Assembly: GCA_037146775.1 (NCBI GenBank)
Contig: JBAWWL010000002.1
Coordinates: 262,554 to 326,553, forward strand
DNA from: Candidatus Omnitrophota bacterium
Lineage (GTDB): Bacteria; Omnitrophota; Gorgyraeia; Duberdicusellales; 4484-171
Direction of reading: 5' to 3'
Length of the DNA stretch: 64,000 nt
Shown here: in pieces, positions 5,193-35,505 of the stretch
Layout: each line of letters begins with the position of its first letter
Numbering within the stretch: the stretch's first letter is position 1
Position numbers and translations under genes: made by a program
Notes under the pieces: model-generated
Told to the model about the DNA's origin: nothing
Database searches by the model: none
What the model saw: the letters and a program-made list of their open reading frames with translations, nothing else

Positions 5193-5195
5193 TTA

Positions 5196-15360: not shown

Positions 15361-15385
15361 GAGGGGTCGAATTGATTGACCCCTC
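15361..15385 (+). other. perfect 8-bp stem hairpin (GAGGGGTC-gaattgatt-GACCCCTC) between the GT4 gene and the GIY-YIG gene
   Basis: Read directly; no U-tract follows. Confidence 0.5.
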
Positions 15386-15774
15386 ATCCTGAGCGTAGCG
15401 AAGGATCTCTAACGGTGAGTAAAGATAAACATCAAGCCGGATATGTATACATCCTAACAAATAGAGGGAATTCGGTTTTGTATACTGGGGCCACAACCAA
15501 TTTGCTTAAAAGAGTTTTCCAGCACAGACAGAGATATCTATCTGGATTCACAAAGCGATATAATTTAAGCAAGTTGGCATATTACGAGGTCTTTATTGAT
15601 ATGGTCAGCGCTCGCGTAAGAGAGCGCAAGATAAAAGGCTGGAAGCGAGGGAGGAAGATAAGTTTAATAGAATCGATGAATCCGATGTGGGAAGATCTCT
15701 ATAATGGATTAGTAAGAGATCCTTCGTCCTTGCGGACTCAGGATGACCCCTTGCTTATTGAAAAAACACCCTAA
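15376..15774 (+). CDS. GIY-YIG nuclease family protein
   Basis: GYVYILTNRGNSVLYTGATTNLLKRVFQH is a GIY-YIG motif; the true start may be GTG near 15415, because the 5' end overlaps a hairpin. Confidence 0.65.
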   Translation: MTPHPERSEGSLTVSKDKHQAGYVYILTNRGNSVLYTGATTNLLKRVFQHRQRYLSGFTKRYNLSKLAYYEVFIDMVSARVRERKIKGWKRGRKISLIESMNPMWEDLYNGLVRDPSSLRTQDDPLLIEKTP

Positions 15775-20074: not shown

Positions 20075-20824
20075 ATGATGAGTGAGCCAAAGTATACTGA
20101 TAATTTCTATCAAGACCTGATTAATAGTTCTCATAAGTCTGCCGCTAAGATTGTTCCTCTAGTTATGGATTTAGTTGCGCCAAAGTCGGTTGTCGATGTG
20201 GGATGTGGGGTTGGAGTGTGGTTATCTATCTTTCGCAAACATGGCGTGGAAGACTTTTTGGGTATAGATGGCTCATGGGTTAATAAAAAGTACCTCCAGA
20301 TTCCCGCCGACAGGTTTTTAGCTCACGATTTAAGGTTACCTCTCACAGTTAACAGAAGATTTGACCTGGTGGTGTCCCTGGAGGCTGCAGAACACGTACC
20401 GTCAGAATGTGCCGAAATTTTTATTAACAGCCTTGTTAGTTTTGGGCCAGTTGTTCTTTTCTCTGCGGCAATTCCCTCGCAGGGAGGCATAGGTCACATT
20501 AATGAACAATGGCCTGATTATTGGGCGAAATACTTTCGTATAAAGGGGTATGTCGTTGTTGATTATTTACGAGGGGCAATTTGGAATGAGAAGGTTTCGC
20601 CGATATACGCTCAAAATATTTTACTCTTTATTGATGAGAAATATCTTAAGGGTCAGCCGGCTTTAGCGGAAGCGTATAAGAAAACAGATGTTGCAACTTT
20701 GTGCCGTGTGCATCCGGAATTTTATGCATATCGAATTAATCCCGAAAACATGTCGTTACGAGAATTATTGCACGCTTTTCCTGCTGTCTTAAGAGAGTAT
20801 ATAGTGCGTAAACTAAAAAGATGA
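20075..20824 (+). CDS. class I SAM-dependent methyltransferase
   Basis: VVDVGCGVGVW motif I; ATG at 20075 follows the asnB stop; the ORF-track start at 20003 is an over-extension. Confidence 0.6.
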   Translation: MMSEPKYTDNFYQDLINSSHKSAAKIVPLVMDLVAPKSVVDVGCGVGVWLSIFRKHGVEDFLGIDGSWVNKKYLQIPADRFLAHDLRLPLTVNRRFDLVVSLEAAEHVPSECAEIFINSLVSFGPVVLFSAAIPSQGGIGHINEQWPDYWAKYFRIKGYVVVDYLRGAIWNEKVSPIYAQNILLFIDEKYLKGQPALAEAYKKTDVATLCRVHPEFYAYRINPENMSLRELLHAFPAVLREYIVRKLKR

Positions 20825-21695
20825 AATATTCTTCCTTGGTTTCGGCGATACAGTATTACGGCTATCCATTCCCCAATCATTTCGGCAAATGGTGGTTGCA
20901 TGCGCGATTGCGTAAAGTTTTTAAGATTACGATTAACGAGGATATGGTGGTTGAGCGTGGTGGTTTACGTTGGATTCTTAATCCTTCTGATTATGTCCAA
21001 TCCGAACTTTTTTGGTTGGGGTTGAGGGATAGATGGAATAGCTATCATGTAAAAAATATTATTAAACCGGCAAATACTATTTTAGATATTGGTGCTAATT
21101 TTGGTTATTATTCTATCATTTGTGCATCTTCTTTGAAAGGGAACTGCCGAGTTTATGCTTTCGAGCCCAATTCACCTTCGTTTAATCGTCTGAAGAAGAA
21201 CATTGAGCTCAACTCTCTGGAGGGTTCTGTTACGGCCGCATGTGTGTAGGTTTTGCAAATACCAACTCAACAGCATATATATCTGAGCCAGTTGGTAATA
21301 GCGGAGCGGCAATCATTGTTAATAAGAAAGGAGATAGAAGTGTTACGCTTTATAGGCTGGATGATTTTTGTTGCGATAGGAAAATCGATAAGATAGATTT
21401 TTTGAAAATTGATGTTGAAGGTTTTGAGCGATATGTTTTAGAGGGAGGGAAAGAAACATTAAAAAAATCCAGACCGGTGATGTTAATTGAATTAAATCCT
21501 GTCGCATTGGCAAAAAATAGCCAGTCGGTCCTTGAGCTCGTTGAGTTTATAAAACATAATGGATATGTATTATATGAGGTAATGAGGACAAAACTTAAAT
21601 TACTCACGCATCTGCCCGGCGGTGAAGATCATATAGATGCGTTTTGTTTTCCCAGGGAAAAGATAGAGCCATTTAAAAAAGAAGGTGTAATATGA
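20821..21695 (+). pseudogene. FkbM-family methyltransferase, split by a frameshift at a (TG)n run
   Basis: The first ORF, ending at 21249, has ILDIGANFGYYSII; the second, starting at 21240, has IDFLKIDVEGFERYVLEGG; together they make about 290 aa, typical for FkbM. The break lies in tgtgtgt at 21241-21247. Confidence 0.55.
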
Positions 21696-22414
21696 AAAAC
21701 AAAACTTTTGTGCAGAAAGTGAAAAATGGTCAGCCGCCGTTTTATTCTCTTATTAAATCTGCAGTTTTATTTATTTTAAACTTCAGGATTCCTTTGTTCT
21801 GGCCGCTGACATGGTTTTATAGAGCATTGTATTTCTTTCATGTCTTTCTGAGAGAGTCCGTGGTAGTTCTCTTAAAAATAATTTATTTTGAGCCAATGAT
21901 TCGGGCTGTATGTGTCAAGGTTGGTCGAAACTTACGTTTAGAAAAGTTGCCGTATATAGTGGGCAATGGTTCAATTGAACTTGGCGATAATGTACGTATC
22001 TCCGGCCGTATAGACATCGGTTTTAATAATCGTTTTGGGCACACGCCTCAATTTATCGTAGGAAACAATGTTTTTATCGGGTGCCTCTGTGGTTTTGCTG
22101 CAGCAAAGAAAATAGAAATTGGTAATAACTGCTATCTTGCTTCAGGGGTTAAGATTTTTGATAATGACGGGCATCCTTTAGATCCCCAAAAGAGAAGACA
22201 GGGTGAACCCGTATCTATTGAAGACGTACAATCGGTAAAGTTATGCGATAATGTTTGGGTTGGAACAGGAGGGGTTATTCTAAAAGGAGTTACTATAGGA
22301 GAGAATTCAGTTGTAGGTGCCGGTTCCATTATCACTAAAGATGTCCCGGCAAATACTATCGTTGCTGGTAACCCCGCAAGAATCATAAAGGTAATTAACC
22401 AAGATGCTTCGTAA
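21692..22414 (+). CDS. hexapeptide-repeat (LbH) acyl/acetyltransferase
   Basis: NVWVGTGGVILKGVTIGENSVVGAGSIITKDVPANTIVAGNPARIIK are hexapeptide repeats. Confidence 0.7.
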   Translation: MKNKTFVQKVKNGQPPFYSLIKSAVLFILNFRIPLFWPLTWFYRALYFFHVFLRESVVVLLKIIYFEPMIRAVCVKVGRNLRLEKLPYIVGNGSIELGDNVRISGRIDIGFNNRFGHTPQFIVGNNVFIGCLCGFAAAKKIEIGNNCYLASGVKIFDNDGHPLDPQKRRQGEPVSIEDVQSVKLCDNVWVGTGGVILKGVTIGENSVVGAGSIITKDVPANTIVAGNPARIIKVINQDAS

Positions 22415-23600
22415 TAGAAATATAATATACTTTTCAAATGATTGGAATACGGATCACAAGGTAAGCAGCCATCATATTGCTAAAGAACTTCTAAAGAATA
22501 ACAGGCTTATTTATGTAGAGACAGGAGGAATGCGTAAACCGAAGGCTTCTTCAAGAGACTTGAGACGCATATTTTTTCGATTAGTTTCTTGGTTACGAGG
22601 AATTCAAAAAATAGACGATAACCTATACATTTACCCGCTTATTATTTTTCCTTTTCATCAAAAATTGGCTCGCAGCCTAAATATATATTTGAATGTTTTT
22701 ATCTTGCGTAGAGCTATTAAGAAGTATAAATTTAAAGACCCAATTCTTTGGTTTGTAACCCCACATGTTTCTTATCTCGCCAATTACCTTCCTAAAAAAT
22801 TTACGGTATATTATTCAACAGATAATGTTTCTCTGGCGCCAGGGGTTGATCAAAAGGCTATTGAATGCTTGGAAAATGATTTATTGCATAAAGCTGATGT
22901 GGTTTTTGGTACCTCAGAATATTTATGTGATAGGTTAAGAAAAAAGAATATCAATCATCATATTTTTTATTCTCCCCAGGCAGTTAATGTAGAACATTTT
23001 TCCAGCGTTCAAAAAAATAATACTTCTCTTGCCGAGGAGATTAAAAATTTGAAGAAACCCGTAATTGGCTATATCGGGCTGATAGAAGAATGGATTGATT
23101 TAGATTTAATTGGGTATATTGCGAAATCGCGGCCAGAATGGTCAATAGCGCTAATTGGTAGAGTAGCTGTTTCTGTAGAAAATCTTAAGCGATTTGCCAA
23201 TATAAAATTTCTCGGAATTAAACAATACGAAGATTTACCTTCTTATTTAAAAGGATTTGATGTTTGTATTTCGCCGTTTAAGATTAATGAATTCACCAAA
23301 GGGGTCAACCCGATCAAGATAAAAGAATATTTGGCTTCAGGAAAGCCGGTAGTTTCAACACACCTTCCGGAGATGGAGAGGTTTAAAGATTTTATTGAGA
23401 TAGCAGATTCATATGAAGACTTTGTTCAAAAGATTGACCAATTTTTAAGCTATGATGATAGTGGTAAAATTACCAAAAGGATGGAATCGGTAAAAAATGA
23501 TAACTGGCAGAATCGGGCAGAAAAGATTTCAGAAATTATTGAAGAAATAGAGAGACTTACTATAAACAGACAATATTTATCAAAAGATTCCAGTGATTAG
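22404..23600 (+). CDS. glycosyltransferase, GT-B fold (GT1-like)
   Basis: C-terminal GYIGLIEEWIDLDLI...KFLGIKQYEDLPSYLKGFDVCISPF...IKEYLASGKPVVST; weak. Confidence 0.5.
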   Translation: MLRNRNIIYFSNDWNTDHKVSSHHIAKELLKNNRLIYVETGGMRKPKASSRDLRRIFFRLVSWLRGIQKIDDNLYIYPLIIFPFHQKLARSLNIYLNVFILRRAIKKYKFKDPILWFVTPHVSYLANYLPKKFTVYYSTDNVSLAPGVDQKAIECLENDLLHKADVVFGTSEYLCDRLRKKNINHHIFYSPQAVNVEHFSSVQKNNTSLAEEIKNLKKPVIGYIGLIEEWIDLDLIGYIAKSRPEWSIALIGRVAVSVENLKRFANIKFLGIKQYEDLPSYLKGFDVCISPFKINEFTKGVNPIKIKEYLASGKPVVSTHLPEMERFKDFIEIADSYEDFVQKIDQFLSYDDSGKITKRMESVKNDNWQNRAEKISEIIEEIERLTINRQYLSKDSSD

Positions 23601-23674
23601 ATTTAGATTGCAGTGATTAAAAATCACCGTAATCATCCCATAATCGCTGTAATCATTTTATAAGAGGGGGCTAA

Positions 23675-24802
23675 ATGTCAATTAAAGTTATTAACGTCGT
23701 AGGCACAAGGCCAAATTATATGAAAATGGCTCCTTTGATAGAGGAGATGAAGAAATACCCTCGCGATTTTTCCCCCCTTCTGGTTCATACTGGTCAGCAT
23801 TACGATAAAGAAATGTGTCATCTATTTTTCGATGATTTAAAAATGGCCCAGCCGGATATAAATTTAGAAGTTGGTTCAGGTAGCCATGCGCAGCAAACTG
23901 CAGCTATTATGGTGAAATTTGAGAGGGTTCTAATGAGCTACAAGCCGGATTTAGTTATGGTGGTTGGCGATGTGAATTCAGCTTTTGCCTGTGCGCTCGT
24001 AGCAAGGAAAATGCGCATAAAAGTTGCACACGTAGAAGCAGGATTGAGAAGCTTTGACGAACGAATGCCTGAGGAAATAAACCGGCGCATGATTGACGCC
24101 ATGTCTGAATACTTATTTACTACCTCCGATGATGATAATCGAAATCTGCTAAATGAGGCAATTCCCAGAAAAAAAATATATTTTGTCGGAAATATCATGA
24201 TTCAGACTCTTCTTAAATTTAAAGAGTTAGCTCAAAAAAGGAAAATTCTACAAGATTTTAAACTTAAACCCAAAGAATTTGCGTTAGTAACTATGCATAG
24301 GCCGGAAAATGTCGATCAAGAATCAACATTTTTGCCTATACTTAAAGCTTTGCGCAAAATTTCTAAAAAATTGCCTATTATATTTCCGGCGCATCCCCGT
24401 ACAATAGAGAAAATTAAGGTTTTAAAAATAGAAAGATGTTTTCAAGAGATAAAAGAATATAATATTAATAATCCAAGAGGCATTTTTATTTTGCCTCCCT
24501 TGGGATATCTTGATTTTGTCAATTTAATGTCGAATTGCCGGTTTATTTTAACTGATTCCGGCGGGATACAGGAAGAGGCAACGCTGCTTAGGGTTCCTTG
24601 TTTTACGCTTCGAGATAATACTGAAAGGCCCATTACTATTCGATGCGGAGGTAATATACTTGTCGGCACAAAAGAGCAGCGCATTGTCCAGATTGTAAGC
24701 AAGGCTATGGGGAAAGGCTGGCGTAAGGTCAAACTTCCTAAATATTGGGATAACCAGGTGGCAAAGAGAATAGTAAGTATTTTGAGGCAAGAATTAACAT
24801 AA
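23675..24802 (+). CDS. wecB: UDP-N-acetylglucosamine 2-epimerase (non-hydrolysing)
   Basis: MSIKVINVVGTRPNYMKMAPLIEEM, HVEAGLRSFD, PEEINRR are conserved blocks. Confidence 0.85.
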   Translation: MSIKVINVVGTRPNYMKMAPLIEEMKKYPRDFSPLLVHTGQHYDKEMCHLFFDDLKMAQPDINLEVGSGSHAQQTAAIMVKFERVLMSYKPDLVMVVGDVNSAFACALVARKMRIKVAHVEAGLRSFDERMPEEINRRMIDAMSEYLFTTSDDDNRNLLNEAIPRKKIYFVGNIMIQTLLKFKELAQKRKILQDFKLKPKEFALVTMHRPENVDQESTFLPILKALRKISKKLPIIFPAHPRTIEKIKVLKIERCFQEIKEYNINNPRGIFILPPLGYLDFVNLMSNCRFILTDSGGIQEEATLLRVPCFTLRDNTERPITIRCGGNILVGTKEQRIVQIVSKAMGKGWRKVKLPKYWDNQVAKRIVSILRQELT

Positions 24803-24826
24803 GGGTTTTATCGGGGATGAGCTGAA

Positions 24827-25942
24827 ATGGATAGTATATTTAAGAAAAAATTAAAAAAAGTAGCCAAAACTTTGATTGTTCCTTTTGAAAAAGCTTTCGG
24901 CGGGCTTTTGCATGATAAGCGCTTTCTTACGCTTTATATGGACTTAAACAATAAATGTAATTTAAAATGTACGATGTGCCACTTCAACGCCAATTTAGAT
25001 AACGAACCCGTAGTGATTATGAGTTTAGAGTTATTTGAAAAAATCGCTAAAGAAGTTTTCCCTAAAACACGCAGGCTTCATTTATCCTGTTCCGCCGAAC
25101 CCCTGATAATCCCAGATTTTTTTAAGTATCTTAAGATCGTAAGCAAATATTCTATTCCCCATACTAAGATTTCTACTAATGGTTTGCTTCTTACTGAAGG
25201 AATGAGTTTAGCCATTATAGAGGCGAACATTACCCAGGTAGGAGTATCAATAGATGGGGCAACTAAGGAAACCTATGAAAAAGTGAGAAAGGGCAGTAAT
25301 TTTGAGAAAGTAATAGAAAATATTGTTTTGCTGCAGAGCCTTAAAAGAAAGCTAAAAAAGAATAAGCCTTTGCTTACCTTTAGCTTTACTCTTATGCGTT
25401 CAAACATTCATGAATTACTCCAGTTTGTAAGATTGGCTAAAAAATTAGAAGCTGACCTTATTCAGGTAACTCATTTAATTCCTTTTAAAAGTTTAGATAT
25501 TATGAGCGAATCTCTTGTAAATTATAAAAAGGAAACTAATGAAATTTTAAATGAAGCAGAGTCTCTCGCAAAAAGCATCAAAATCGCTCTTGAACTGCCT
25601 TCCAGGTTTAGTTTAAATAAAGCAAAGGATACACAACTTTTATTTAACAAGCCTGATTGTCGAGTGCTTTATAATTCGATGTATATAATTTCCGACGGCC
25701 GAGTTGTCCCTTGCACGTGGTTTTCTTTGAAAGAATATTGCGTGGGTGATTTTAAAAAAGAGAATTTTCAAGAAATATGGAATGGCGAAGTTTATGGGAG
25801 GCTTCGCAGGCAATGGCGCAATAGAACATATCCTGAATACTGTCGGAATTGCCCTGTTTGGGGCAGCGAGAGTATTGATAATTATGTTTTTCAGGAGAAA
25901 GAGAGGAAAGACGTTCTTAATATTTCTTCGGTTGGCGTTTAG
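24827..25942 (+). CDS. radical SAM protein with C-terminal SPASM-like Cys-rich domain
   Basis: CNLKCTMCHF is a Cx3Cx2C motif; the C-terminus has CTWF...CRNCPVWG cysteines. Confidence 0.7.
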   Translation: MDSIFKKKLKKVAKTLIVPFEKAFGGLLHDKRFLTLYMDLNNKCNLKCTMCHFNANLDNEPVVIMSLELFEKIAKEVFPKTRRLHLSCSAEPLIIPDFFKYLKIVSKYSIPHTKISTNGLLLTEGMSLAIIEANITQVGVSIDGATKETYEKVRKGSNFEKVIENIVLLQSLKRKLKKNKPLLTFSFTLMRSNIHELLQFVRLAKKLEADLIQVTHLIPFKSLDIMSESLVNYKKETNEILNEAESLAKSIKIALELPSRFSLNKAKDTQLLFNKPDCRVLYNSMYIISDGRVVPCTWFSLKEYCVGDFKKENFQEIWNGEVYGRLRRQWRNRTYPEYCRNCPVWGSESIDNYVFQEKERKDVLNISSVGV

Positions 25943-26016
25943 TAATGTCGGGTGCAAGATAGGCTAAATTATTAACAACATAAATTCGAAAACGAAAGAA
26001 GAAATAAGTGATTTAA

Positions 26017-26439
26017 ATGGCTAAAGAGATAAAGTCGGAAGGTCTGGAATATATATCTCATAAAGGGAAATTAATTTGCATTATTGTAAGAAATTCTTAC
26101 TGTAATAATAAAGTTATTTTTTTTACCCCCCAGAGTTTTTCGCAGCAACTTGGTTTTTTGCCCCACAAAAAAGGCGATTTCATTAAGCCGCATAAACATA
26201 AGCTTCACAAAAGGGAGATCTTCTACACCCAGGAAGTTTTGTGGGTTAAAAAGGGCAAAGTCAGAGTTGATTTATATAGCGAAGAAGAGAAATTCTTATG
26301 TTCGGAAGTCTTAATAAAAGGGGAAATAATTCTTCTTTGCGGCGGTGGGCATGGTGTCGAAGTTCTTGAGGATTCAGTGATGATTGAAGTAAAGCAGGGG
26401 CCCTACAAAGGGCCGGAAGATAAGCAATTTCTTAGGTAA
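26017..26439 (+). CDS. cupin-fold protein, possibly sugar 3,4-ketoisomerase (WxcM/FdtA-like)
   Basis: 140 aa with a His cluster (PHKKGDFIKPHKHKLHKRE); sits directly upstream of the DegT aminotransferase. Confidence 0.35.
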   Translation: MAKEIKSEGLEYISHKGKLICIIVRNSYCNNKVIFFTPQSFSQQLGFLPHKKGDFIKPHKHKLHKREIFYTQEVLWVKKGKVRVDLYSEEEKFLCSEVLIKGEIILLCGGGHGVEVLEDSVMIEVKQGPYKGPEDKQFLR

Positions 26440-26444
26440 AAATA

Positions 26445-27578
26445 ATGAAAACGATACCGGTAAGCGAACCGCTGATACTGGGGAAAGAGCTTAAGTATGC
26501 GCAACAGGCAATTGAATCAGGCTGGATTTCTTCTGAGGGAGAATTTATAAATAGATTTGAAAAAGATTTTGCGCAATATATTGGGAAAAAATATGCTGTT
26601 GCGGTAAATAATGGCACTAATGCTCTCATCTTGGCCTTACGGGTATTAGACCTTCCTAAGGAAAGCGAAGTAATTATCCCTACCTTTACTATAATTTCAT
26701 GTGCGCTTTCTTGCATATATAATAACTTAATTCCAGTATTTATAGATTGCGATAAAAGAACGCAGACCATGGACGTTTCTAAGATTGAAGAGAGGATAAG
26801 CAAAAAGACCAAAGCAATAATGCCGGTACATATATACGGCCATCCGGCTGATATGAATATGGTTTTAAAGGTTGCTAAAAAACATAACCTTTGTGTAATT
26901 GAGGATTTCGCTGAGGCCATTGGTTCGTTATATAAAGGCAGAAAATGTGGTAGCTTCGGAGACATAAATTGCACAAGTTTTTACGGTAATAAGCTTATCA
27001 CGACAGGCGAAGGCGGAATGTGTTTAACCGATAACAAAATCTTTGCGGAGAAACTGAGGAGATTGCGCAATTTAGGTTTTATCCCCCAAGAGAGGTTCGT
27101 TCACTATGATTTGGGCTTTAATTTTAGGATAACGAATGTCCAGTCCGCCATAGGTTGCGCTCAGTTAGAGAGAATAGAGGAGCATGTTAAAAGGAAAGTA
27201 TGGATAGCCAACACATACAACCGGGCATTAAACAAATTGCAGCAAAAAGGCTTTATAAGCTTACCTGTCGAAGAAACTTGGGCTAAAAATACTTATTGGA
27301 TGTATACGATAGTATTGAATGAAAAATTTGGAGTAAAAGCAAAAGAAGTGATAGGGAAATTGAGGAAGAAAAATATTCAGGCAAGGCCATTCTTTTATCC
27401 TTTACATCTTCAGCCTGCTTTTAAGAAATTGCCTTGGTATAAAAAAGAAAATCTTCCGGTAAGTGAGAAATTATATGAATATGGTTTTTATCTTCCTTCG
27501 GGATTAACCCTCAAAAAAGAAGATATAGGAAGGGTTTCGTTTGCCCTAGAAGAGGTTTTACATGGTTTTTGCAAGTGA
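26445..27578 (+). CDS. DegT/DnrJ/EryC1/StrS-family PLP-dependent sugar aminotransferase
   Basis: GWISSEGEFINRFEKDFAQYIGKKYAVAVNNGTNAL...FYGNKLITTGEGG (the Lys in NK is the PLP-binding lysine). Confidence 0.8.
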   Translation: MKTIPVSEPLILGKELKYAQQAIESGWISSEGEFINRFEKDFAQYIGKKYAVAVNNGTNALILALRVLDLPKESEVIIPTFTIISCALSCIYNNLIPVFIDCDKRTQTMDVSKIEERISKKTKAIMPVHIYGHPADMNMVLKVAKKHNLCVIEDFAEAIGSLYKGRKCGSFGDINCTSFYGNKLITTGEGGMCLTDNKIFAEKLRRLRNLGFIPQERFVHYDLGFNFRITNVQSAIGCAQLERIEEHVKRKVWIANTYNRALNKLQQKGFISLPVEETWAKNTYWMYTIVLNEKFGVKAKEVIGKLRKKNIQARPFFYPLHLQPAFKKLPWYKKENLPVSEKLYEYGFYLPSGLTLKKEDIGRVSFALEEVLHGFCK

Positions 27579-28320
27579 ATACGCTTTGGTTTACGATACC
27601 CTTTATCGCGACAAAGATTACAAAAAAGAAAGTGAGTTTATTGAAAATATTTTTAGAAAGCTTAAGCTTACTCCAAAAACCATCCTTGACCTTGGTTGCG
27701 GAACGGCAAGCCATGCGATTTCTTTAGCCAGAAGAGGTTATGAGGTAGTTGGCGTGGATAAATCCGCGCAAATGCTTAAAATTGCGAAAGAAAAAGCAAA
27801 AAAGGCTAGAGTTTCTATTGAGTTCATTAAAGAAGATATAACAAAATTAAACTTACAGAAAAAATTCGATGCAATAGTCGCTATGTTCGCTGTCGTTGGT
27901 TATCAAGCGACCGATTCCGCATTAAAAAAAACATTCGATACGGCGCATAAACATCTTGTCCCTGGCGGTATATTTATATTTGATTGTTGGTATGGCCCGG
28001 CTGTTTTAACGGATAAACCTCGCGAATGCATTAAGGAAATTGTTACCGCTAACGGAGAAAAGATAGTCAGATTTACTACCCCTGAGTTTGAAATCTTAAG
28101 AAATATCGTAAAAGTTAATTTTAAAGTGCAAAGATTCAAAGGGGCTAAAATTATAGCGGAAACAAAAGAAAGCCATTTAATGCGTTTTCTATTTGCTGAT
28201 GAGATTGTACACTTTTTAAAAAGAGCAGGCTTTAAAAGTGTGCAATTGCACCCCTTTTTAAATCTTGATAAGGCCATATCAGAGGAAGACCGGAATGTAA
28301 CGGTAGTTGCTCGCGCGTAA
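27562..28320 (+). CDS. class I SAM-dependent methyltransferase
   Basis: ILDLGCGTASHA motif I. Confidence 0.65.
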   Translation: MVFASEYALVYDTLYRDKDYKKESEFIENIFRKLKLTPKTILDLGCGTASHAISLARRGYEVVGVDKSAQMLKIAKEKAKKARVSIEFIKEDITKLNLQKKFDAIVAMFAVVGYQATDSALKKTFDTAHKHLVPGGIFIFDCWYGPAVLTDKPRECIKEIVTANGEKIVRFTTPEFEILRNIVKVNFKVQRFKGAKIIAETKESHLMRFLFADEIVHFLKRAGFKSVQLHPFLNLDKAISEEDRNVTVVARA

Positions 28321-28352
28321 CTTTGGAAATTTTTCAAAACCCTGCTTAATTT

Positions 28353-29165
28353 ATGCCGATGATAAAAAGAATAATAAAACGCATATTAAAAATCTTAGGG
28401 TTTACAATACGAAGATTACCCTCGAGCCGATATGGGAGTAAAAAAAGATTATTCACCCCATTGCGGTTTACAATGGAAGAGGCCCTGCAGCATATATCGA
28501 GCTTGGGCTATTCTCCTCCAATCATAATAGATGTTGGCGCTGCAGGCGGCACGCCGGCTTTACTGAATATCTTTCCGGATGCAAAATATATCTGGATTGA
28601 ACCGTTAAAAGAATTTGAGAGCCATCTCAATAAACTGTCGAAGAGATACAATGGGCAAGTTATTATTGCAGCTGCCGGTAAGCTTAGCGGAGTTTCTGTA
28701 ATTACGATTAGTCCGGATTTATATGGCAGTTCTTTATCATATGATAATTCGAATGAGAGCACATTAAGAGAAGTCAATACGATTAGGCTGGATGATTTAA
28801 TTGAAGAGCACAACTTAAAAAACAATATTCTTCTAAAAGTTGATGTTCAAGGGTATGAACTGGAGGTACTTGAGGGGGCTCAACACGTCCTGCAAGTTTG
28901 TGAGGTTGTGATTCTTGAGGTATCACTTTTTAAGTTCCAGCGGGATTATCCGGATTTTTCTGAAGTTGTTGAGTATATGAAAAAGAGAAATTTTGTTGTG
29001 TACGATATTGTAGACGGACATAATCGTCCACTCGACGGCGCATTAGCCCAGAAAGACGTTCTGTTTGTAAAAGAAAACGGCCGATTCAGGCAAAATCACC
29101 AATGGGGGACAGCCGAGCAAATCGAACAATTTAACAAAATATATCGGCACAATAAGAATAACTAA
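28353..29165 (+). CDS. FkbM-family methyltransferase
   Basis: IIDVGAAGGTP and LKVDVQGYELEVLEGA. Confidence 0.65.
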   Translation: MPMIKRIIKRILKILGFTIRRLPSSRYGSKKRLFTPLRFTMEEALQHISSLGYSPPIIIDVGAAGGTPALLNIFPDAKYIWIEPLKEFESHLNKLSKRYNGQVIIAAAGKLSGVSVITISPDLYGSSLSYDNSNESTLREVNTIRLDDLIEEHNLKNNILLKVDVQGYELEVLEGAQHVLQVCEVVILEVSLFKFQRDYPDFSEVVEYMKKRNFVVYDIVDGHNRPLDGALAQKDVLFVKENGRFRQNHQWGTAEQIEQFNKIYRHNKNN

Positions 29166-30475
29166 TGGAAAAAATAATACTTGTTTATCCAGATTATCGG
29201 GGTGGAGATATTTTTAATGGGCAATATTTGCCTGTAGGTTTAGGTTATCTCGCTAGGGCTCTTGAGAATGCACAAATCCAATATAAAACTATTGATTTGA
29301 ATATCGATTCTATAGATAAGCTGTTTGATGAAATAAAATATTTTCTTCCTCATTTTTTAGGCATCAGTATGATGAGCTTTCGCTGTAAGGCGACGTATCA
29401 ATTGATTGCGAATTTAAAATCTAAGTTCCCGAACCTTACTATAATTGTGGGCGGTCCGCACGTGGCCGCTAATAAAGATAAAGTTATGAAAGAGTGCCTT
29501 TTTGTAGATATCGCCGTATCTAGGGAAGGCGAAACCGCCTTGGTAGATATTGTTGGCGGTAGGCCACTGCCAACAATCAAAGGTATATTTTATCGGCAAG
29601 GTGCAAAAATATATTTCTCCGGAGAAAGAGATTTTATACAAAACTTAGACGATATAGATTTTCCAACATACAAAGGGTTTAATTTGAGTAGATATGGAAA
29701 ACGTATGCAGATATCTTCTTCTAGGGGCTGCCCTTACGAATGTATATTTTGTGGAGCCCCTGAGATTCTAGGTAGGTATTGGCGGAAGCGGAGCGCAAAG
29801 AGTATGATTGAAGAATTTGACTATTGGTATGAAAAAGGCTATAGAAATTTTTATTTTAATGATAGTAATTTTGCTGTTGATAAAATACGAATATGGAATT
29901 TTTGTGAGGAAATTAGAAAGCGCAATCCTAATGTGTCTTTTAGGAGCGATGGTTTACGCGCGGATCATCTTGATAAAGAATTACTTGTTCAGATGCGTGA
30001 GGCAAAATTCACTCATCTTTCTTTTGGAGTTGAAAGCGGCAGTGATAAGGTTTTATTAAATTTAAGAAAAGGAGAGACGCGCGCACAAATAGAAATAACT
30101 ATAGCAACAGCCGTTAATTTAGGGTTTTATGTAACACTTTTTTTCCTGCTTGGTTGCCCGGGGGAAGATAAAGAAGATATCAGGCAGTCTTTTCAGCTTG
30201 CCTGTAAATATAGAGTAGAGCGAGTTTATTTTTTTAATTTAACACCCATTCCGGGAACAGAATATTATCGGTGGGCTGTTGCAAAAGGTTATATTGATGA
30301 ATTTGGTGGTAACTATCCCGAGGATAGGTTCGGTTTTCCAGATAAAATGCTTTTTGGAACCGGAAATATGCCAAAAGAAGAGCTCATATCGTGGCGAAGG
30401 AGCGCACGATGGCTGGAACGAAAAATTAGGTGGCAGTTTCGCTTAGAAAGACTTACAAGAAAATTTATTTTGTAA
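29165..30475 (+). CDS. B12-binding-domain radical SAM protein (class B)
   Basis: N-terminal Rossmann-like region then SSRGCPYECIFC, a Cx3Cx2C motif. Confidence 0.7.
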   Translation: MEKIILVYPDYRGGDIFNGQYLPVGLGYLARALENAQIQYKTIDLNIDSIDKLFDEIKYFLPHFLGISMMSFRCKATYQLIANLKSKFPNLTIIVGGPHVAANKDKVMKECLFVDIAVSREGETALVDIVGGRPLPTIKGIFYRQGAKIYFSGERDFIQNLDDIDFPTYKGFNLSRYGKRMQISSSRGCPYECIFCGAPEILGRYWRKRSAKSMIEEFDYWYEKGYRNFYFNDSNFAVDKIRIWNFCEEIRKRNPNVSFRSDGLRADHLDKELLVQMREAKFTHLSFGVESGSDKVLLNLRKGETRAQIEITIATAVNLGFYVTLFFLLGCPGEDKEDIRQSFQLACKYRVERVYFFNLTPIPGTEYYRWAVAKGYIDEFGGNYPEDRFGFPDKMLFGTGNMPKEELISWRRSARWLERKIRWQFRLERLTRKFIL

Positions 30476-30479
30476 TGCA

Positions 30480-31958
30480 ATGCAGGTAGAGCATAATTCT
30501 TTACACACCGTTATTAGGATACAAGCCTTAGAATCTGTAAGGTGGACTTTTTTAGCCGAAGTCATCTCGCGGTTAATACAACCAATAGTTACTTTGATTC
30601 TTGCTCGCATTTTGTTACCAGAAGATTTTGGCCTTATTAGCATAGCAATGATTGTTATTGGGCTTGCTCAGCAATTCCAAGACTTTGGATTCGGGAAAAC
30701 ATTAATTCAGCGAGAAAATGAAATAGAGAAATCTGCTAACATAATTTTTTTATTAAATATTGCGTTTTCATTTATTCTGTATGGAATAATTTTCATTATC
30801 GCCCCTTTGGTCGCAAAGTTTTTTCATAATCAAAACGCAACTATTGTATTACGAATATTAAGCCTGCAAGTTATTTTGATTAGTTTTAGTATTGTTCAAC
30901 AGGCGTTACTTAGAAGAAATTTTAAATTTAAGGAGCTTTTTTTTATTAGAATTATTTCAGCATTATTCCCTGGTTTTGTTTCGATAGCCTTAGCCCTGTC
31001 AGGTTTCGGCGTATGGGCTTTAGTCTTTGGTGCGATAGCTAGTTCGGTTTTGCAAGCCTATCTTTTATGGAAATTAAGTTTATGGAGACCTAGAATATGT
31101 TTTGATTTTTCTTTGGCTTGGGAATTATTCCATTTTAGCAAATGGATAAGCTTAGAGATGTTTTTTGGATGGCTAATACTTTGGGGAGATTCTATAATAC
31201 TTGGTTATTTTCTTGGCGTAAAGGATTTGGGTATTTATCGTGTAGGGATAGCATGTTTGATATTAGTCTTTGATGTTATTTTTAATCCTTTACTGCCAGT
31301 ACTATTTTCCTTTTTTTCAAGATTGCAGCATGATGCAAAACGATTAAGACAGGAGTTTATCGCGATAAATAGGTTGGTGGCTTTAGTGTCATTACCACTA
31401 GGTGCAGGGTTATTATTTTTTGCACCCACTATTTCTCTTATGGTATTCGGACAAAAATGGTTAGGAATCGACATGGTTATTGGTTTGCTTGGTATTATGT
31501 ATGGTGTTGGATGGCTTGTAGGTATTAATCCAGAAATATATCGTGCTATAGGTAGACCAGATATACAGCCAAAATTATTAATGATAAGCGTATTATTTTA
31601 TATTCCGGTTTACATAGTTTTTGCGCGCTATGGGCTTTTCCAATTCTGCCTAGCAAGATTGGCATTGGCCATATTAATGATACCGTTTCATTTATGGATT
31701 TGTAGTAAGGTCATGAACATTGCTATATTCAAACTAGTACAAAATATGCTTCGTCCATCAGCCGGGGTCTTAATTGCATTAGGGTTAGTTTATCTTACTG
31801 ACAAGTTTATATTTTTAGGAACTTTTATTTGGTATCAGAATTTGCTCGCAATTTTATTATACTTGGCATTTTATATATTTCTTATGTGGATATTTGATAG
31901 AAAATTTATCCGAATAATCTATGTGCTGGCTAAAACAGTTATGGTTAATTTATCCTAA
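30480..31958 (+). CDS. oligosaccharide flippase (MOP/Wzx family)
   Basis: 492 aa with about 12-14 TM segments in a polysaccharide locus. Confidence 0.6.
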   Translation: MQVEHNSLHTVIRIQALESVRWTFLAEVISRLIQPIVTLILARILLPEDFGLISIAMIVIGLAQQFQDFGFGKTLIQRENEIEKSANIIFLLNIAFSFILYGIIFIIAPLVAKFFHNQNATIVLRILSLQVILISFSIVQQALLRRNFKFKELFFIRIISALFPGFVSIALALSGFGVWALVFGAIASSVLQAYLLWKLSLWRPRICFDFSLAWELFHFSKWISLEMFFGWLILWGDSIILGYFLGVKDLGIYRVGIACLILVFDVIFNPLLPVLFSFFSRLQHDAKRLRQEFIAINRLVALVSLPLGAGLLFFAPTISLMVFGQKWLGIDMVIGLLGIMYGVGWLVGINPEIYRAIGRPDIQPKLLMISVLFYIPVYIVFARYGLFQFCLARLALAILMIPFHLWICSKVMNIAIFKLVQNMLRPSAGVLIALGLVYLTDKFIFLGTFIWYQNLLAILLYLAFYIFLMWIFDRKFIRIIYVLAKTVMVNLS

Positions 31959-31986
31959 GATATTTTTCAAGATTATATTTATTTTA

Positions 31987-32709
31987 ATGGACAAAAAATT
32001 TGAATGTTATCGTGATTGGGAATACAAAAGATTAGGCGATTATCACAGAAATTTAGACCCTAATTGGTCTTATACGCCTACCTATCTTGTAAAGATGAAA
32101 TATATAAGAAATTATCTTCATTCTTTGCCGAAAAATCTTAGAATTCTTGATGCTGGGTGTGGTGAGGGAGTTTTAGTTGAAGAGTTTCTCACAAAAGGCT
32201 ATCAAATTACGGGTATAGATTTAAATTATGAAAGCGAATATGTGCAGCGCGCAGATATCTTGCATTTGCCTTACCCCGATAATACTTTTGATGTTATTTT
32301 GATGCTTGACATGATTGAACATATAAGCTTTGAGGATCAACCCCGAGCGCTTAGCGAGGCAAAACGTGTATTACGGCCGGACGGCGCGCTTGTAATGAGC
32401 GTTCCTAACCTAGTGCATCTAAATTCTCGGGTGCGCAATCTTTTAACCGGTAAATTCGACCGGACAGATAAAGAAGAAAATCATCCCGGTGAGCGGCCGT
32501 ATAAAGAAAACATAATGCTTTTAACGAACGCCGGTTTTGACATTAAAAAAATTAAAGGTATTACTCTCACTATGCCGTTTATTTATAGAGGAATTATTTG
32601 TCGTAGACCAGCTCGTTTTAGATGGTTGCACGATATTTTAAATATTTTTGCGATTCCCCAATTAGCTATGATTAATATTTTCGTTTGCAAGAGTATAAGT
32701 GGGTATTAA
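31987..32709 (+). CDS. class I SAM-dependent methyltransferase
   Basis: ILDAGCGEGV motif I; ATG at 31987 (MDKKFECY); the ORF-track start at 31921 is an over-extension into the flippase gene. Confidence 0.6.
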   Translation: MDKKFECYRDWEYKRLGDYHRNLDPNWSYTPTYLVKMKYIRNYLHSLPKNLRILDAGCGEGVLVEEFLTKGYQITGIDLNYESEYVQRADILHLPYPDNTFDVILMLDMIEHISFEDQPRALSEAKRVLRPDGALVMSVPNLVHLNSRVRNLLTGKFDRTDKEENHPGERPYKENIMLLTNAGFDIKKIKGITLTMPFIYRGIICRRPARFRWLHDILNIFAIPQLAMINIFVCKSISGY

Positions 32710-33346
32710 AGATCGTGTAGATATAATGTCACTAAAAAGATGGCGTTTTAAAGATTTTCTTATTAATCATGGCCTAATTATTACATATATTAGATTTATT
32801 TTAAGAGGATACAGAAAATACTTTAATATCTTTACTCACTTAAGAAAAAAAGAGCGGTTGCTTCTTTATAAACTCGCCCTTTCTCTTAAAAAGAATTCAA
32901 TCATAGTTGAAATAGGAAGTTATCTTGGCTCAAGCGCTGCATTTTTAGCTTGTGCAGCTAAAGATAGAGGCCACATGGTTTATTGTGTGGACACATGGAA
33001 GAATGAAGGTATGAGCGAGGGGTCGAGGGATACCTTTGCAGAATTTTGTATAAATATAGCATCGATACAGAGTTATATTCGTATTTTACGAGGCAATTCA
33101 GCAGAAATAGCAAGAACTTTTGATAGAGGAATCGATCTTCTTTTTATTGATGGTAACCACTCATATGATGGCGTAAAACAAGACGTAGAATTGTGGCTAC
33201 CAAAATTAAAAGATAATGGCATAATTATATTTCACGACGTAGCTTGGGAGGAAGGCGTGCAAAAAGTAATTAATGAATATATCCAGCCGATAGTGGAAGA
33301 AAGGGCTATATTAGCTAATACATATTGGGCAAAAGTAAAAAAATGA
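32699..33346 (+). CDS. class I SAM-dependent methyltransferase (CmcI/O-MT family 3-like)
   Basis: IVEIGSYLGSSAAFLA...LLFIDGNHSYDGV. Confidence 0.55.
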   Translation: MGIKDRVDIMSLKRWRFKDFLINHGLIITYIRFILRGYRKYFNIFTHLRKKERLLLYKLALSLKKNSIIVEIGSYLGSSAAFLACAAKDRGHMVYCVDTWKNEGMSEGSRDTFAEFCINIASIQSYIRILRGNSAEIARTFDRGIDLLFIDGNHSYDGVKQDVELWLPKLKDNGIIIFHDVAWEEGVQKVINEYIQPIVEERAILANTYWAKVKK

Positions 33347-35505
33347 ATAACATTAAGTTTTCTGTTATCATTCCTACTCATACAAGGACAGCATTGCTTT
33401 TAGGCGCGATAAAAAGTTTAGAAAAACAGACAATGAATAATTATGAAGTCATAATTGTTGATAATGCTTGTTCTGAAGAGGTAAAAACTATTGTTGAGGC
33501 TAACTACAAGAGTTTCGCTGCGAAGGGTTCAGCAATAAAATATATTCCAGAGCCAAAAATCGGCCTGCATAATGTGCGGCATCGAGGAGCAAAAGCGGCG
33601 CGGGGAGATATTTTAGTTTATATTGATGACGATGTTATCTGTGATGAGAATTTATTAGATGAAATTTTAAAACCGTATAGCGATTCAAATGTTGGTTGTG
33701 TAGGAGGTAAAATCTTGCCTAAGTGGGAGGTAATCCCTCCCGAATGGATACATAAGTTTCCCAAATGGTATTTGAGCCTACTGGATGACGACGAAGGCCC
33801 AAAAGAGAAACAATGGTTATACGGATGTAATTTTTCTATCCGTAAGAGCTTACTCTTTGAGCTCGGGGGTTTCAATCCCGATTCTTTTTACGATAAAAAG
33901 ATGTGGTGGGCTAGGGGCGATGGGGAAATAGGGCTTTTGCGAAAAGTGCATATTTTAGGCAAGAAAGTTATTTATAATCCTCGTGCTATTGTTTGGCATT
34001 TTATACCAAAGGAAAGATTGGCTATTGAGTTTTTCCAGTCGCGTGCATTTAAAAGCGGCGTAGAAACTTCTTTTACGAAATATCATTACAGCCCTCGATT
34101 AATTCATTTATTTCGCCTCTTACCGCGGGCTGCCGCTTTTGGGCTTACTTCGATTTTCTGTAGTATAGAAGCAATTTTGCTTAAAACCAATCGTTTTAAG
34201 GATAAGGTAAATTCGGCTTATTATAAAGGCCGCTGTTTTTACGAATGGAGATTAGCTGTAAATAAAGAATTACAGCAGTTTATAAAACAAAAAAATTGGA
34301 TTGATAATTCAACAAACGTACTGAAAAACACTAGCCACAGTATTGCACTTGTTCTAAATGGAGAAAAGCCGTTAAGTACGTATCCTTCAGTATGTAATAC
34401 TGCTCGATTAATGGCTGAGAATGGCTATGATATTACTTTATTCATTAGAGAAGATATGAAAGTCGATTGTACATTCAAAAATATAAAAATTATTAAATTT
34501 AAAAAAACTTTTCCTTCCGTATACGGTTTATTTAAAATATTAACTTGTTATGCAAAAGAATTTGACCTTCTTATCCCTTTTCATCCTGAAGAATTAATCG
34601 CCGTAGGATTAGCGAGTTTCATATGCAGGGTGCCTTTTATTTATTTTTGCTTAGAAATTATTGATTTTGATGAAATAAAAACTTTTAAGGCAAGAATACG
34701 CAAGCATTTTGAAGTACTCTTTAACAAAAATGCTGTCGCCACAATTGTTCAGGATGATGTACGAAAAGAGTTGATTAAAAAAGTTAATAAAATAGATAAC
34801 GCAAATATATTCTGCGTTCCAAATTCTTATATAGGGGTGGTAAAAGATAAAAGTGATTATTTAAGGCGTAAGTATAATATCGAAAAAGAAAAAACAGTTA
34901 TATTGTATGCTGGCGCCCTTGAGCGCTGGGCAATAGACGTTTCGCTCATTGAAGGCATCAGGCAGTGTAATGAAAATTGTGTTTTTGTTTTGCACGGGTG
35001 GAGTTATGACGGTTTCCTTGGAACGTTAAAACCATTAATTTCTACGTGTAATGAATCCAGTAAGAAAATTTATCTTTCATTGGATGTCGTTGGGGAAGAA
35101 GAATACAGCCAGCTTGTTTCATCCGCAGATATAGGTTTAGTTTGGTACAGAAGAGATTTTTCAAATAACGTTTCCAAGGTCGGCTTATCCTCTGGTAAAT
35201 TTGCCTCTTTTTTACGATGCGGTGTCCCGATTATTATCCCGGTATATCTTGAGGAACTCAAAAGTCTTATTAACAAATATAACATAGGTAGTATGGTTGA
35301 GAATGAATTTGGAATTAAAAAAGGTATAGAATCTATATTAATTAATTATAGTTCTTGCCGAGAAAATGCTTTTAAATTTTCTTCCCAACATCTTGATTTT
35401 AGTAAGAATTTCAATTGTATTTTAAAGTGGCTAAATATTTATCTAGGCAGTAAGCACGGTGTAAAAATATATAACAATGAAAATACCACGTTTTCAGAAA
35501 ATTAA
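33325..35505 (+). CDS. GT2 glycosyltransferase fused to a C-terminal GT-B-like domain
   Basis: N-terminal FSVIIPTHTRTALL...VIIVDNA...YIDDD are GT2 motifs; C-terminal VILYAGALERW...VLHGW is GT-B-like; 726 aa. Confidence 0.6.
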   Translation: MGKSKKMNNIKFSVIIPTHTRTALLLGAIKSLEKQTMNNYEVIIVDNACSEEVKTIVEANYKSFAAKGSAIKYIPEPKIGLHNVRHRGAKAARGDILVYIDDDVICDENLLDEILKPYSDSNVGCVGGKILPKWEVIPPEWIHKFPKWYLSLLDDDEGPKEKQWLYGCNFSIRKSLLFELGGFNPDSFYDKKMWWARGDGEIGLLRKVHILGKKVIYNPRAIVWHFIPKERLAIEFFQSRAFKSGVETSFTKYHYSPRLIHLFRLLPRAAAFGLTSIFCSIEAILLKTNRFKDKVNSAYYKGRCFYEWRLAVNKELQQFIKQKNWIDNSTNVLKNTSHSIALVLNGEKPLSTYPSVCNTARLMAENGYDITLFIREDMKVDCTFKNIKIIKFKKTFPSVYGLFKILTCYAKEFDLLIPFHPEELIAVGLASFICRVPFIYFCLEIIDFDEIKTFKARIRKHFEVLFNKNAVATIVQDDVRKELIKKVNKIDNANIFCVPNSYIGVVKDKSDYLRRKYNIEKEKTVILYAGALERWAIDVSLIEGIRQCNENCVFVLHGWSYDGFLGTLKPLISTCNESSKKIYLSLDVVGEEEYSQLVSSADIGLVWYRRDFSNNVSKVGLSSGKFASFLRCGVPIIIPVYLEELKSLINKYNIGSMVENEFGIKKGIESILINYSSCRENAFKFSSQHLDFSKNFNCILKWLNIYLGSKHGVKIYNNENTTFSEN

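Follow-up and report, generated by a model that had tools for sequence, protein, structure and literature searches.

The DNA analysed here is a 64-kb stretch (64,000 nt, hereafter the window) from a Candidatus Omnitrophota bacterium. At positions 20075–33346 of the window, 15 tightly packed genes are located on the + strand, according to the list of open reading frames (ORFs) and the Pfam and NCBIfam scans. They include two radical S-adenosylmethionine (SAM) genes, one of them with a B12-binding domain, among genes for methyltransferases and sugar-modifying enzymes. The genes are listed in Table 1, and each gene is designated by the position of its first nucleotide. In an initial annotation, made from the sequence alone, this interval was described as one sugar locus with a SPASM enzyme, B12-binding radical SAM enzymes and seven or more methyltransferases. 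The genes it named are present at the coordinates it gave. The interval encodes six conventional methyltransferases, of which five are intact and one is frameshifted, and a count of seven or more is reached only by including the B12-binding enzyme or the 12335 protein. One B12-binding radical SAM gene, 29165, lies inside the interval as described, but the plural was loose, the second (51625) being located outside. The asnB gene, which the annotation had included, is present but ends 2 nt before the interval start.

Table 1. Genes of the interval and associated genes. Positions are those of the whole window.
Gene	Position	Strand	Evidence and remarks
asnB, AsnB-type glutamine amidotransferase	18169..20073	+	Pfam Asn_synthase, GATase_7, GATase_6; TIGR01536 493 bits vs cutoff 267
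Class I methyltransferase (Methyltransf_23), 249 aa	20075..20824	+	Pfam; start as in L001 gene call
FkbM-family methyltransferase, frameshifted	20821..21695 (ORFs 20821-21249, 21240-21695)	+	Pfam
Left-handed beta-helix (LbH) acetyltransferase	21692..22414	+	Pfam Hexapep
GT1-family glycosyltransferase	22404..23600	+	Pfam Glyco_trans_1_4, Glycos_transf_1
WecB, non-hydrolysing UDP-GlcNAc 2-epimerase	23675..24802	+	TIGR00236 341.4 bits vs cutoff 210.15; Pfam Epimerase_2 1.4e-108
Radical SAM enzyme, twitch-like (partial SPASM) C-terminal domain	24827..25942	+	Pfam Radical_SAM and SPASM
Small WbuC-like cupin, 140 aa (trio gene 1)	26017..26439	+	TIGR04366 WbuC, below cutoff
DegT-family pyridoxal phosphate (PLP) aminotransferase (trio gene 2)	26445..27578	+	Pfam DegT 1.1e-112
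Class I methyltransferase (Methyltransf_25) (trio gene 3)	27562..28320	+	PDB matches DesVI, TylM1, CalS10
FkbM-family methyltransferase, intact	28353..29165	+	Pfam Methyltransf_21 2.7e-21; TIGR01444 77 bits vs cutoff 37.7
B12-binding-domain radical SAM enzyme, 436 aa	29165..30475	+	Pfam B12-binding and Radical_SAM
Wzx-type flippase	30480..31958	+	Pfam Polysacc_synt_3 1.3e-79
Class I methyltransferase (Methyltransf_11)	31921..32709	+	Pfam; homologues beside B12 homologues
Methyltransf_24 methyltransferase	32699..33346	+	Pfam 2.9e-28
Two-domain glycosyltransferase, N-terminal GT2	33325..35505	+	Pfam Glycos_transf_2; overlaps end of Methyltransf_24 gene
Second B12-binding radical SAM enzyme, 480 aa, outside locus	51625-53067		Between PlsC-type acyltransferase and ornithine cyclodeaminase, housekeeping genes

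The spacing of the genes across 20075–33346 ranges from a 38-nt overlap to a 74-nt gap. As all of them are on the same strand with this spacing, the interval represents one array rather than genes juxtaposed by chance. It is enclosed by one long same-strand glycan locus of the Wzx/Wzy type, which extends from position 1 to ~43 kb of the window. The locus contains GT1, GT2 and GT4 glycosyltransferase genes, Wzy, a PMT_2-type transferase, FabG-like and FabH-like genes and Wzx, and further a GDSL esterase, a short-chain dehydrogenase/reductase (SDR) epimerase and CpsB/CapC, all on the + strand. The tight same-strand packing bears out the description as one sugar locus, as opposed to a composite of unrelated operons. 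The G+C content is 0.33–0.41 in the glycan locus (1–43000), whereas it is mostly 0.41–0.47 in the housekeeping region downstream (~45–64 kb). The lower value fits a horizontally exchanged, mosaic glycan locus. In a promoter scan of the window, promoter-like matches were no commoner than in shuffled controls. Terminator-like matches showed a slight excess (21 vs 15.2 ± 3.8 in shuffles), which is no guide to operon structure.

The 29165 protein possesses the two domains of its class. The B12-binding domain (PF02310, residues 19–129) scores 61.3 bits vs a cutoff of 32.1, and the radical SAM core (PF04055) scores 72.5 bits vs a cutoff of 29.5. The CX3CX2C motif, C189/C193/C196, is invariant in the alignment of 20 homologues. 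Among the candidates scored, 3,985 relatives were found at E ≤1e-10, and they are distributed over many uncultured bacterial and archaeal lineages. Most of the relatives are 478–495 aa in length, and the 436-aa protein of the window is without the poorly conserved C-terminal tail of ~50 aa. The structure model, with a predicted local distance difference test score (pLDDT) of 90.7, shows the class fold. The Foldseek neighbours are QCMT/MgmA (9ccb), TsrM, AprD4, CysS, OxsB and TokK. According to the profile alignment, OxsB, TokK, CysS and QCMT, which bind cobalamin, align with the N-terminal domain of 29165, whereas the N-terminal domain of AprD4 does not. The similarity to AprD4 is limited to the radical SAM core and the C-terminus (residues 183–417). 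AprD4 uses no cobalamin, and the fold alone is no guarantee of cobalamin use. As its N-terminal domain aligns with cobalamin binders, 29165 likely binds cobalamin. Placement of 29165 with either methylating or non-methylating families was attempted by NCBIfam, by PDB sequence and profile searches and by Foldseek, and neither side was favoured. C-methylation by 29165 is plausible but unproven.

Three consecutive genes upstream of 29165, encoding the cupin 26017, the DegT aminotransferase 26445 and the methyltransferase 27562, are referred to here as the trio. The DegT protein matches the GDP-perosamine synthases 3bn1, 3dr7 and 3dr4 over residues 4–372 (5.5e-91 to 4.4e-90, ~308 bits), and the next PDB match is at 1.9e-71. 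The NCBIfam model LegC gives 328 bits, below its cutoff of 420. From these scores, 26445 appears closest to a perosamine-synthase-type C4 aminotransferase acting on a 4-keto-6-deoxyhexose. The amination of the sugar, which the initial annotation had predicted, is well supported by this full-length match. The methyltransferase 27562 (252 residues) matches DesVI (3bxo, 3.5e-17) and TylM1 (3pfg/6m83, ~1e-14) over residues 3–210, and also CalS10 (6uk5); two uncharacterised methyltransferases score above DesVI and TylM1. N-methylation, which was not considered in the initial annotation, is predicted from the likeness of 27562 to DesVI, TylM1 and CalS10 and from its co-inheritance with DegT. We infer that the trio product would be an N-methylated 4-amino-4,6-dideoxyhexose.

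The cupin 26017 conserves the pattern HxH...E...H. Its sole NCBIfam match is TIGR04366 (WbuC), with 33.4 bits vs a cutoff of 42 (E 3.5e-8), and all five cupin homologues tested match the same model (best 4.4e-9). By these scores, the cupin appears to be related to WbuC but to fall outside the curated family. No Pfam match was found for 26017, and none for the five homologues even at E up to 5, FdtA included. No PDB sequence match was obtained with either the single sequence or the profile. The name cupin isomerase, given in the initial annotation, is unverified, as only the WbuC model matches, below cutoff, and FdtA does not. An FdtA-type (FdtA/QdtA/Tyl1a) 3,4-ketoisomerase was considered for 26017 and rejected, having neither profile nor PDB support. 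The literature found on WbuC consists of papers on resistance-plasmid context only, with no function described.

The cupin has at least 576 relatives in metagenomes, and these were used to examine the gene neighbourhood of the trio. Of the 56 loci whose downstream sequence is long enough, 45 have DegT directly after the cupin. Where the cupin is flanked by at least 5 kb on each side (20 loci), DegT is present in all and the 27562-type methyltransferase in 15, whereas the B12-radical SAM, FkbM, Methyltransf_24 and wecB genes are each absent from all 20 and a SPASM-like gene is found in one. The gene upstream of the cupin varies in the metagenome loci (GT2 in 21 loci, a GalE-like SDR in 11). The trio is an independent, widespread unit, of which the radical enzymes are not part.

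Close relatives of 29165 (43–60% identity) were inspected in five sequenced loci: L089 and L172 (60% each), L090 from Brocadiaceae (56%), L173 from Phycisphaerales (54%) and L091 (43%). Homologues of the trio are located within 10 kb in all five. Compared with the proteins of the window, the cupins are 42–50%, the DegT proteins 47–54% and the methyltransferases 26–54% identical. A sixth locus, around P0164, has a matching gene list, judged from Pfam labels only. In the case of the distant relatives (≤41% identity; species-representative genomes), a cupin was found in none of 80 loci. The genes surrounding the B12 enzyme recur as well, and 29165, 31921, 32699 and the GT2 gene 33325 are treated here as a conserved module, the B12 block, which is found with the trio in several phyla. 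In L089, L172 and L173, the immediate neighbour of the B12 homologue is a homologue of 31921 with 57–60% identity. A GT2 gene comes after the B12 block in L089, L090, L091 and L172, that of L090 being 37% identical to 33325. As in the window, the gene immediately upstream of the B12 gene is an FkbM gene in L090 and L007. The export system is of the Wzx type in the window and in L089, and of the Wzm/Wzt type in L091 and in the locus around P0164.

In at least five protein clusters (P0178, P0184, P0187, P0192 and P0227), the B12 enzyme carries a Methyltransf_24 domain as a C-terminal fusion. The window protein 32699 shares 50% identity with this C-terminal domain in P0192 (L091). With the N-terminal domain of a GT2 fusion protein of 545 aa encoded in L173 (12384–14021), it shares 49%. 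A 935-aa product in L172 (20791–21317) has B12-binding, radical SAM and faint GT2 matches. In L174 (16670–19057), a radical SAM domain and Glyco_transf_61 are fused in a 795-aa protein. The fusions in L172, L173 and L174 suggest a physical link between glycosyl transfer and the steps performed by radical SAM enzymes and methyltransferases. The best PDB match of 32699 is 6g7d, which we take to be the mycobacterial 1-O-methyltransferase MeT1; this identity is unconfirmed and is not used as evidence.

A sister cassette, L007, is syntenic with the window from the SPASM gene to GT2. Its genes are 74–86% identical to those of the window (86% for the copy of 31921), except for Wzx (51%) and the B12 enzyme. 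The B12-radical SAM gene in the same slot of L007 (4352–5821, 489 aa) is only 30% identical to 29165, which points to replacement by a paralogue. From the wider 29165 family, 86 loci with a total of 133 B12-radical SAM genes were examined. GT4 is present in 25 of these loci, GT2 in 24, 31921-like methyltransferases in 17, DegT in 14 and SPASM-like radical SAM genes in 11. This type of locus is common in uncultured anaerobes, so that the arrangement is a recurring one and not unique to this window. The initial annotation had called the combination atypical for O-antigen or capsule loci. This is true of textbook loci but not of uncultured anaerobes, in which the relatives of 29165 are common in glycan loci.

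The second radical SAM enzyme of the interval, 24827, has the motif CX3CX2C at C44/C48/C51. Only four cysteines of the C-terminal domain, C278, C296, C339 and C342, are kept throughout the alignment of 21 homologues. The twitch pattern C278-x13-G-x4-C296 ... C339-x2-C342 (CX17C...CX2C) is kept, whereas the seven-cysteine SPASM motif (CX9-15GX4C ... CX2CX5CX3C ... C) is not. Four conserved cysteines suffice for one cluster, so that 24827 is twitch-like, as BtrN, and one auxiliary Fe-S cluster is predicted. The SPASM label of the initial annotation is correct as a Pfam match (55.8 bits vs a cutoff of 21.5), because the model also covers the twitch part, but four C-terminal cysteines are too few for a full SPASM domain. 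The NCBIfam twitch model NF033640 gives 78 bits, below its cutoff of 170. The AlphaFold model has a pLDDT of 87.6, and its fold neighbours are mixed, with the peptide maturases SkfB, CteB, anSME, SuiB and PqqE and the sugar or nucleoside enzymes BlsE, DesII and BtrN. The best PDB sequence match is a lipid enzyme, GDGT-MAS (5.6e-9).

About 25 close relatives of 24827 (≥45% identity) were found, and all those with a source name are from Omnitrophota. The homologue in L007 (77%) is in the same cassette as in the window, with the SPASM-cupin adjacency kept. The neighbours of the others are different: thyA, the SPASM gene, a B12-radical SAM gene and RibD_C in L002–L004 (53–54%), a sulfatase and MiaB in L005 and L006 (45–46%), an 862-aa SPASM protein and a 3001-aa protein in L008 (57%), and several radical SAM genes and glycosyltransferases in L174 (52%). 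In L002–L004, the B12-radical SAM right after the SPASM homologue is 63% identical, over the full length, to 51625 of the window. This gene is located at 11016–12458 in L002; in the window, 51625 and 24827 are 26 kb apart. As the contexts of the relatives are mixed and often unrelated to sugars, a sugar role of 24827 is suggested only by its place in the array, 24 nt downstream of wecB and 74 nt ahead of the cupin, and by L007. A BtrN/BtrS-like role, in which 24827 supplies a keto sugar to the aminotransferase, was rejected as the leading idea, because a perosamine-synthase-like DegT needs only an ordinary 4,6-dehydratase encoded elsewhere, because the trio normally occurs without any radical SAM gene and because the gene preceding the cupin is variable. 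Another SPASM radical SAM protein (351 aa) is encoded in L089 (347–4554) between DegT and NeuB with a CMP-sugar synthetase; it is thus a radical SAM gene inside a nonulosonic-acid-type cassette.

We regard the interval as possibly, though with somewhat less than even confidence, the tailoring core of one Wzx/Wzy surface-glycan locus composed of separable modules, in which the B12 enzyme radically methylates an unactivated carbon. The gene identities, the module structure and the co-occurrence are observed, while the substrates and every chemical step described below are inferred. The trio would convert an NDP-4-keto-6-deoxyhexose into an N-methylated or N,N-dimethylated 4-amino-4,6-dideoxyhexose, and GT2 33325 would transfer this perosamine-like sugar. 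The B12 enzyme 29165 and the methyltransferases 31921 and 32699 may methylate the trio sugar or the growing lipid-linked glycan, with 29165 performing a cobalamin-dependent radical methylation of an unactivated carbon in parallel to GenD1. Lineage-specific additions would be 24827, two FkbM O-methyltransferases (one of them inactivated), WecB, the O-acetyltransferase and the AsnB-type amidotransferase. For 24827, the likeliest reaction class would be radical oxidation, epimerisation or deoxygenation of a sugar.

More tentatively, the conserved set may be extended beyond this organism. It would consist of a 29165-type enzyme, two methyltransferases, GT2 and the trio, and would perform cobalamin-dependent radical methylation during glycan assembly in Omnitrophota, anammox and other Planctomycetota and further lineages. 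On this reading, the product would be a branched-chain (C-methyl) N-methylamino-dideoxyhexose. If Methyltransf_24 is an O-methyltransferase, the product could instead be an O-ethyl or O-isopropyl ether formed by extension of an O-methyl group, because the B12 enzyme is fused to Methyltransf_24. CysS reportedly extends an O-methyl group. As for the heavy methylation predicted in the initial annotation, six methyltransferase genes make it a reasonable prediction.

Several results weigh against radical methylation by 29165 and against the assignment of both radical enzymes to one sugar. Neither 29165 nor 24827 reaches the cutoff of any curated NCBIfam family. The best curated models for 29165 are the non-methylating HpnJ (154.8 bits vs a cutoff of 577.6), ApyD (134.6 vs 750) and BchE (131.5 vs 481), followed by PhpK (119 vs 600), QCMT (97.6 vs 360) and AprD4 (71 vs 500). 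AprD4 shows the top TM-score (0.77/0.75), and in the search of the 29165 family profile against the PDB, QCMT (9ccb, 2.9e-30) and AprD4 (6e-30) are equidistant. The C-methylation proposed in the initial annotation thus has the class domains on its side, but not a curated cutoff or a nearer methylase. The enzyme in the L007 slot is so different that the slot does not demand the 29165 clade. As the trio usually occurs without radical SAM genes, the radical enzymes are optional add-ons, and their substrate is guessed from linkage only. No cobalamin gene was seen among the window ORFs scanned, and no 4,6-dehydratase or nucleotidyltransferase in the window; the Rfam scan of the 64-kb window detected no cobalamin riboswitch. 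The neighbours of the relatives of 24827 with 45–57% identity are thyA, a sulfatase, MiaB or giant proteins unconnected with sugars.

The main rival explanation is an enzyme that acts on the glycan or its sugar without methylating it. The reaction would be a radical rearrangement or a ring contraction, or else a dehydration or deoxygenation, of the kinds catalysed by HpnJ, OxsB and AprD4. All methyl groups would then originate from the six conventional methyltransferases. The rank of HpnJ (155 bits), ApyD and BchE among the curated models, the TM-score of AprD4 and its profile tie with QCMT all agree with this explanation. The substrates of both HpnJ (glucosaminyl-hopanoid, as proposed) and AprD4 (a sugar 1,2-diol dehydratase) are amino sugars. 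We nevertheless consider a non-methylating 29165 rather unlikely, since the AprD4 similarity is confined to residues 183–417, the N-terminal domain aligns only with cobalamin-binding members, and most of the characterised cobalamin radical SAM enzymes are methylases (PMC12931638). The recurrent fusion or adjacency with SAM methyltransferases also fits a methylation theme, although this argument is weak.

One or both of the radical SAM genes may, alternatively, be passengers that have a target other than the sugar, such as a lipid, a protein or a cofactor. This possibility chiefly concerns 24827, which may be the genome's copy of a general Omnitrophota enzyme pairing elsewhere with a 51625-type B12 enzyme. 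The non-sugar neighbourhoods of its relatives, the pairing in L002–L004 and the sequence match with GDGT-MAS agree with this, but 24827 is embedded in a gap-free same-strand array, and its adjacency to the cupin is kept in L007, a sequence that starts at the SPASM gene. Moreover, the SPASM-like genes of the B12-family loci are in many cases in glycan loci, and L089 and L090 have such genes too. For 29165, the conserved partners in all five loci argue against a passenger. We therefore judge the passenger explanation improbable. Still less credible, and in our view very improbable, is a chance composite of unrelated operons without a single product. The modules do differ in distribution, the trio usually lacking radical SAM genes and all 20 well-flanked trio loci lacking wecB, FkbM and Methyltransf_24, and the lower G+C content is typical of mosaic, horizontally exchanged glycan loci. 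On the other hand, the genes all share a strand and either overlap or are at most 74 nt apart, promoter- and terminator-like matches are not significantly above shuffled controls, the cassette from SPASM to GT2 is syntenic in L007, and the B12 block and the trio occur together in five other loci.

The arrangement was compared with known systems. In the case of gentamicin, garosamine is formed by GenD2 oxidation, GenS2 transamination, GenN N-methylation and, as the last step, C-methylation by the cobalamin-dependent radical SAM enzyme GenD1 (PMC4340712). The likeness, which is at the superfamily or class level, is in the combination of enzyme classes on one sugar: a keto intermediate, PLP transamination, SAM N-methylation and a B12 radical SAM enzyme. 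The gentamicin product is an antibiotic pseudotrisaccharide, whereas the genes here belong to a locus for a cell-surface glycan, in which Wzx, Wzy and glycosyltransferases are also encoded, and the aminotransferase acts at C3'' there but would be of the perosamine-synthase-like C4 type here. GDP-perosamine biosynthesis (Per/RfbE) is similar in the full-length match of 26445 (3bn1, 3dr4) and in the surface-polysaccharide setting. It differs in that classical perosamine is N-acylated and not N-methylated, that the window has no GDP-mannose 4,6-dehydratase, and that here a WbuC-like cupin always precedes the aminotransferase gene.

Desosamine and mycaminose are formed with the radical SAM enzyme DesII, the DegT enzymes DesV and TylB, the N,N-dimethyltransferases DesVI and TylM1, and the cupin ketoisomerase Tyl1a. 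A radical SAM gene, a small cupin, DegT and a DesVI/TylM1-like methyltransferase are likewise side by side here. DesII is among the fold neighbours of 24827, but not a close one (TM ~0.58/0.47), and the locus differs in its WbuC-like cupin without an FdtA/Tyl1a Pfam match, the twitch-type cluster of 24827 and the C4-type aminotransferase. Compared with twitch sugar enzymes, 24827 has one predicted cluster and gives TMt values of 0.70 for BtrN and 0.68 for BlsE, but SkfB, CteB, anSME and SuiB score equally, the identities are 15–18%, and there are non-sugar relatives. The structures of cobalamin radical SAM enzymes (QCMT/MgmA, TokK, CysS, TsrM and OxsB, and the cobalamin-free AprD4) share with 29165 the Rossmann-type N-terminal domain, the barrel and CX3CX2C. 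On the other hand, 29165 is at most 19% identical to all of them, is shorter than TokK, CysS and OxsB, and has glycan genes as partners rather than those of ribosomally made, post-translationally modified peptide (RiPP), carbapenem or nucleoside pathways.

So far, the sugar-modifying cobalamin radical SAM enzymes described are from antibiotic pathways, for example that of gentamicin. The B12-dependent radical SAM enzymes were reviewed in 2026 with no mention of polysaccharides or glycans (PMC12931638), and targeted literature searches found no description of a cobalamin radical SAM enzyme for capsule, O-antigen or S-layer glycans. If true, the proposed C-methylation would be the first case of radical C-alkylation to be described for the biosynthesis of envelope polysaccharides. 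It would represent a new class of chemistry for the envelope glycans of uncultured anaerobes and would tie glycan synthesis to the cobalamin supply. The anammox bacterium Kuenenia possesses a heavily methylated S-layer glycan with an unidentified 174-Da residue (PMC5088730). Kuenenia and L090 belong to the same family (Brocadiaceae), which is a lead and not a link. Radical methylation could explain unidentified methylated residues, such as this 174-Da unit (PMC5088730). As the partner set recurs across phyla, it presents a testable pathway with a predicted substrate, the N-methylated perosamine-like sugar. If 29165 does not C-methylate, the analysis would still be a useful dissection of a mosaic but ordinary glycan locus.

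The frameshifted FkbM gene is divided into two ORFs. According to the Pfam scan, the N-terminal ORF matches positions 1–58 of the FkbM profile, and the C-terminal ORF matches positions 89–172. The site of the frameshift is a (TG)3 tract, catgtgtgtagg, at ~21240–21249. When one TG is deleted, a continuous frame ...VTAACVGFANTNST... is obtained. The frameshift is present in two assemblies, both possibly from the same reads. The 20075 methyltransferase has no homologue in the related loci examined. The best NCBIfam matches of the LbH protein 21692 are maltose O-acetyltransferase and WbbJ, all below cutoff, and it looks like an O-acetyltransferase. The amidation predicted in the initial annotation is not upheld, as no uronic-acid-forming gene was found in the locus; without such a partner, a role of AsnB in sugar amidation is only a guess.

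Outside the interval, several features of the glycan locus were observed. Three ORFs at 4239–6323 and 15787–16950, encoding 317–387 aa, are without a Pfam match; 4239 and 5196, the two of them scanned with NCBIfam, have no match there either. A FabG-like SDR and a FabH-like β-ketoacyl-ACP synthase III are encoded at 2404–4119, a hint of acyl or hydroxyacyl decoration or of a lipid anchor. The region 10579–12360 encodes a 593-aa PMT_2 (ArnT-like) membrane glycosyltransferase, directly before the 12335 gene. The latter (12335–14227) encodes a 630-aa protein with a C-terminal Methyltransf_11 domain and a large unannotated N-terminal region, and is an extra methyltransferase gene. A 132-aa GIY-YIG nuclease-domain protein is encoded at 15376–15774, between a GT4 gene and an unannotated ORF. 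Past the boundary of the glycan locus, efflux genes (OEP, HlyD and MacB) are located. At or near this boundary are a gene for a 23S rRNA intervening-sequence protein (bAvd-like, 40789–41151) and a pair of AbiEii toxin and helix-turn-helix genes (44209–45449), a type IV toxin-antitoxin system.

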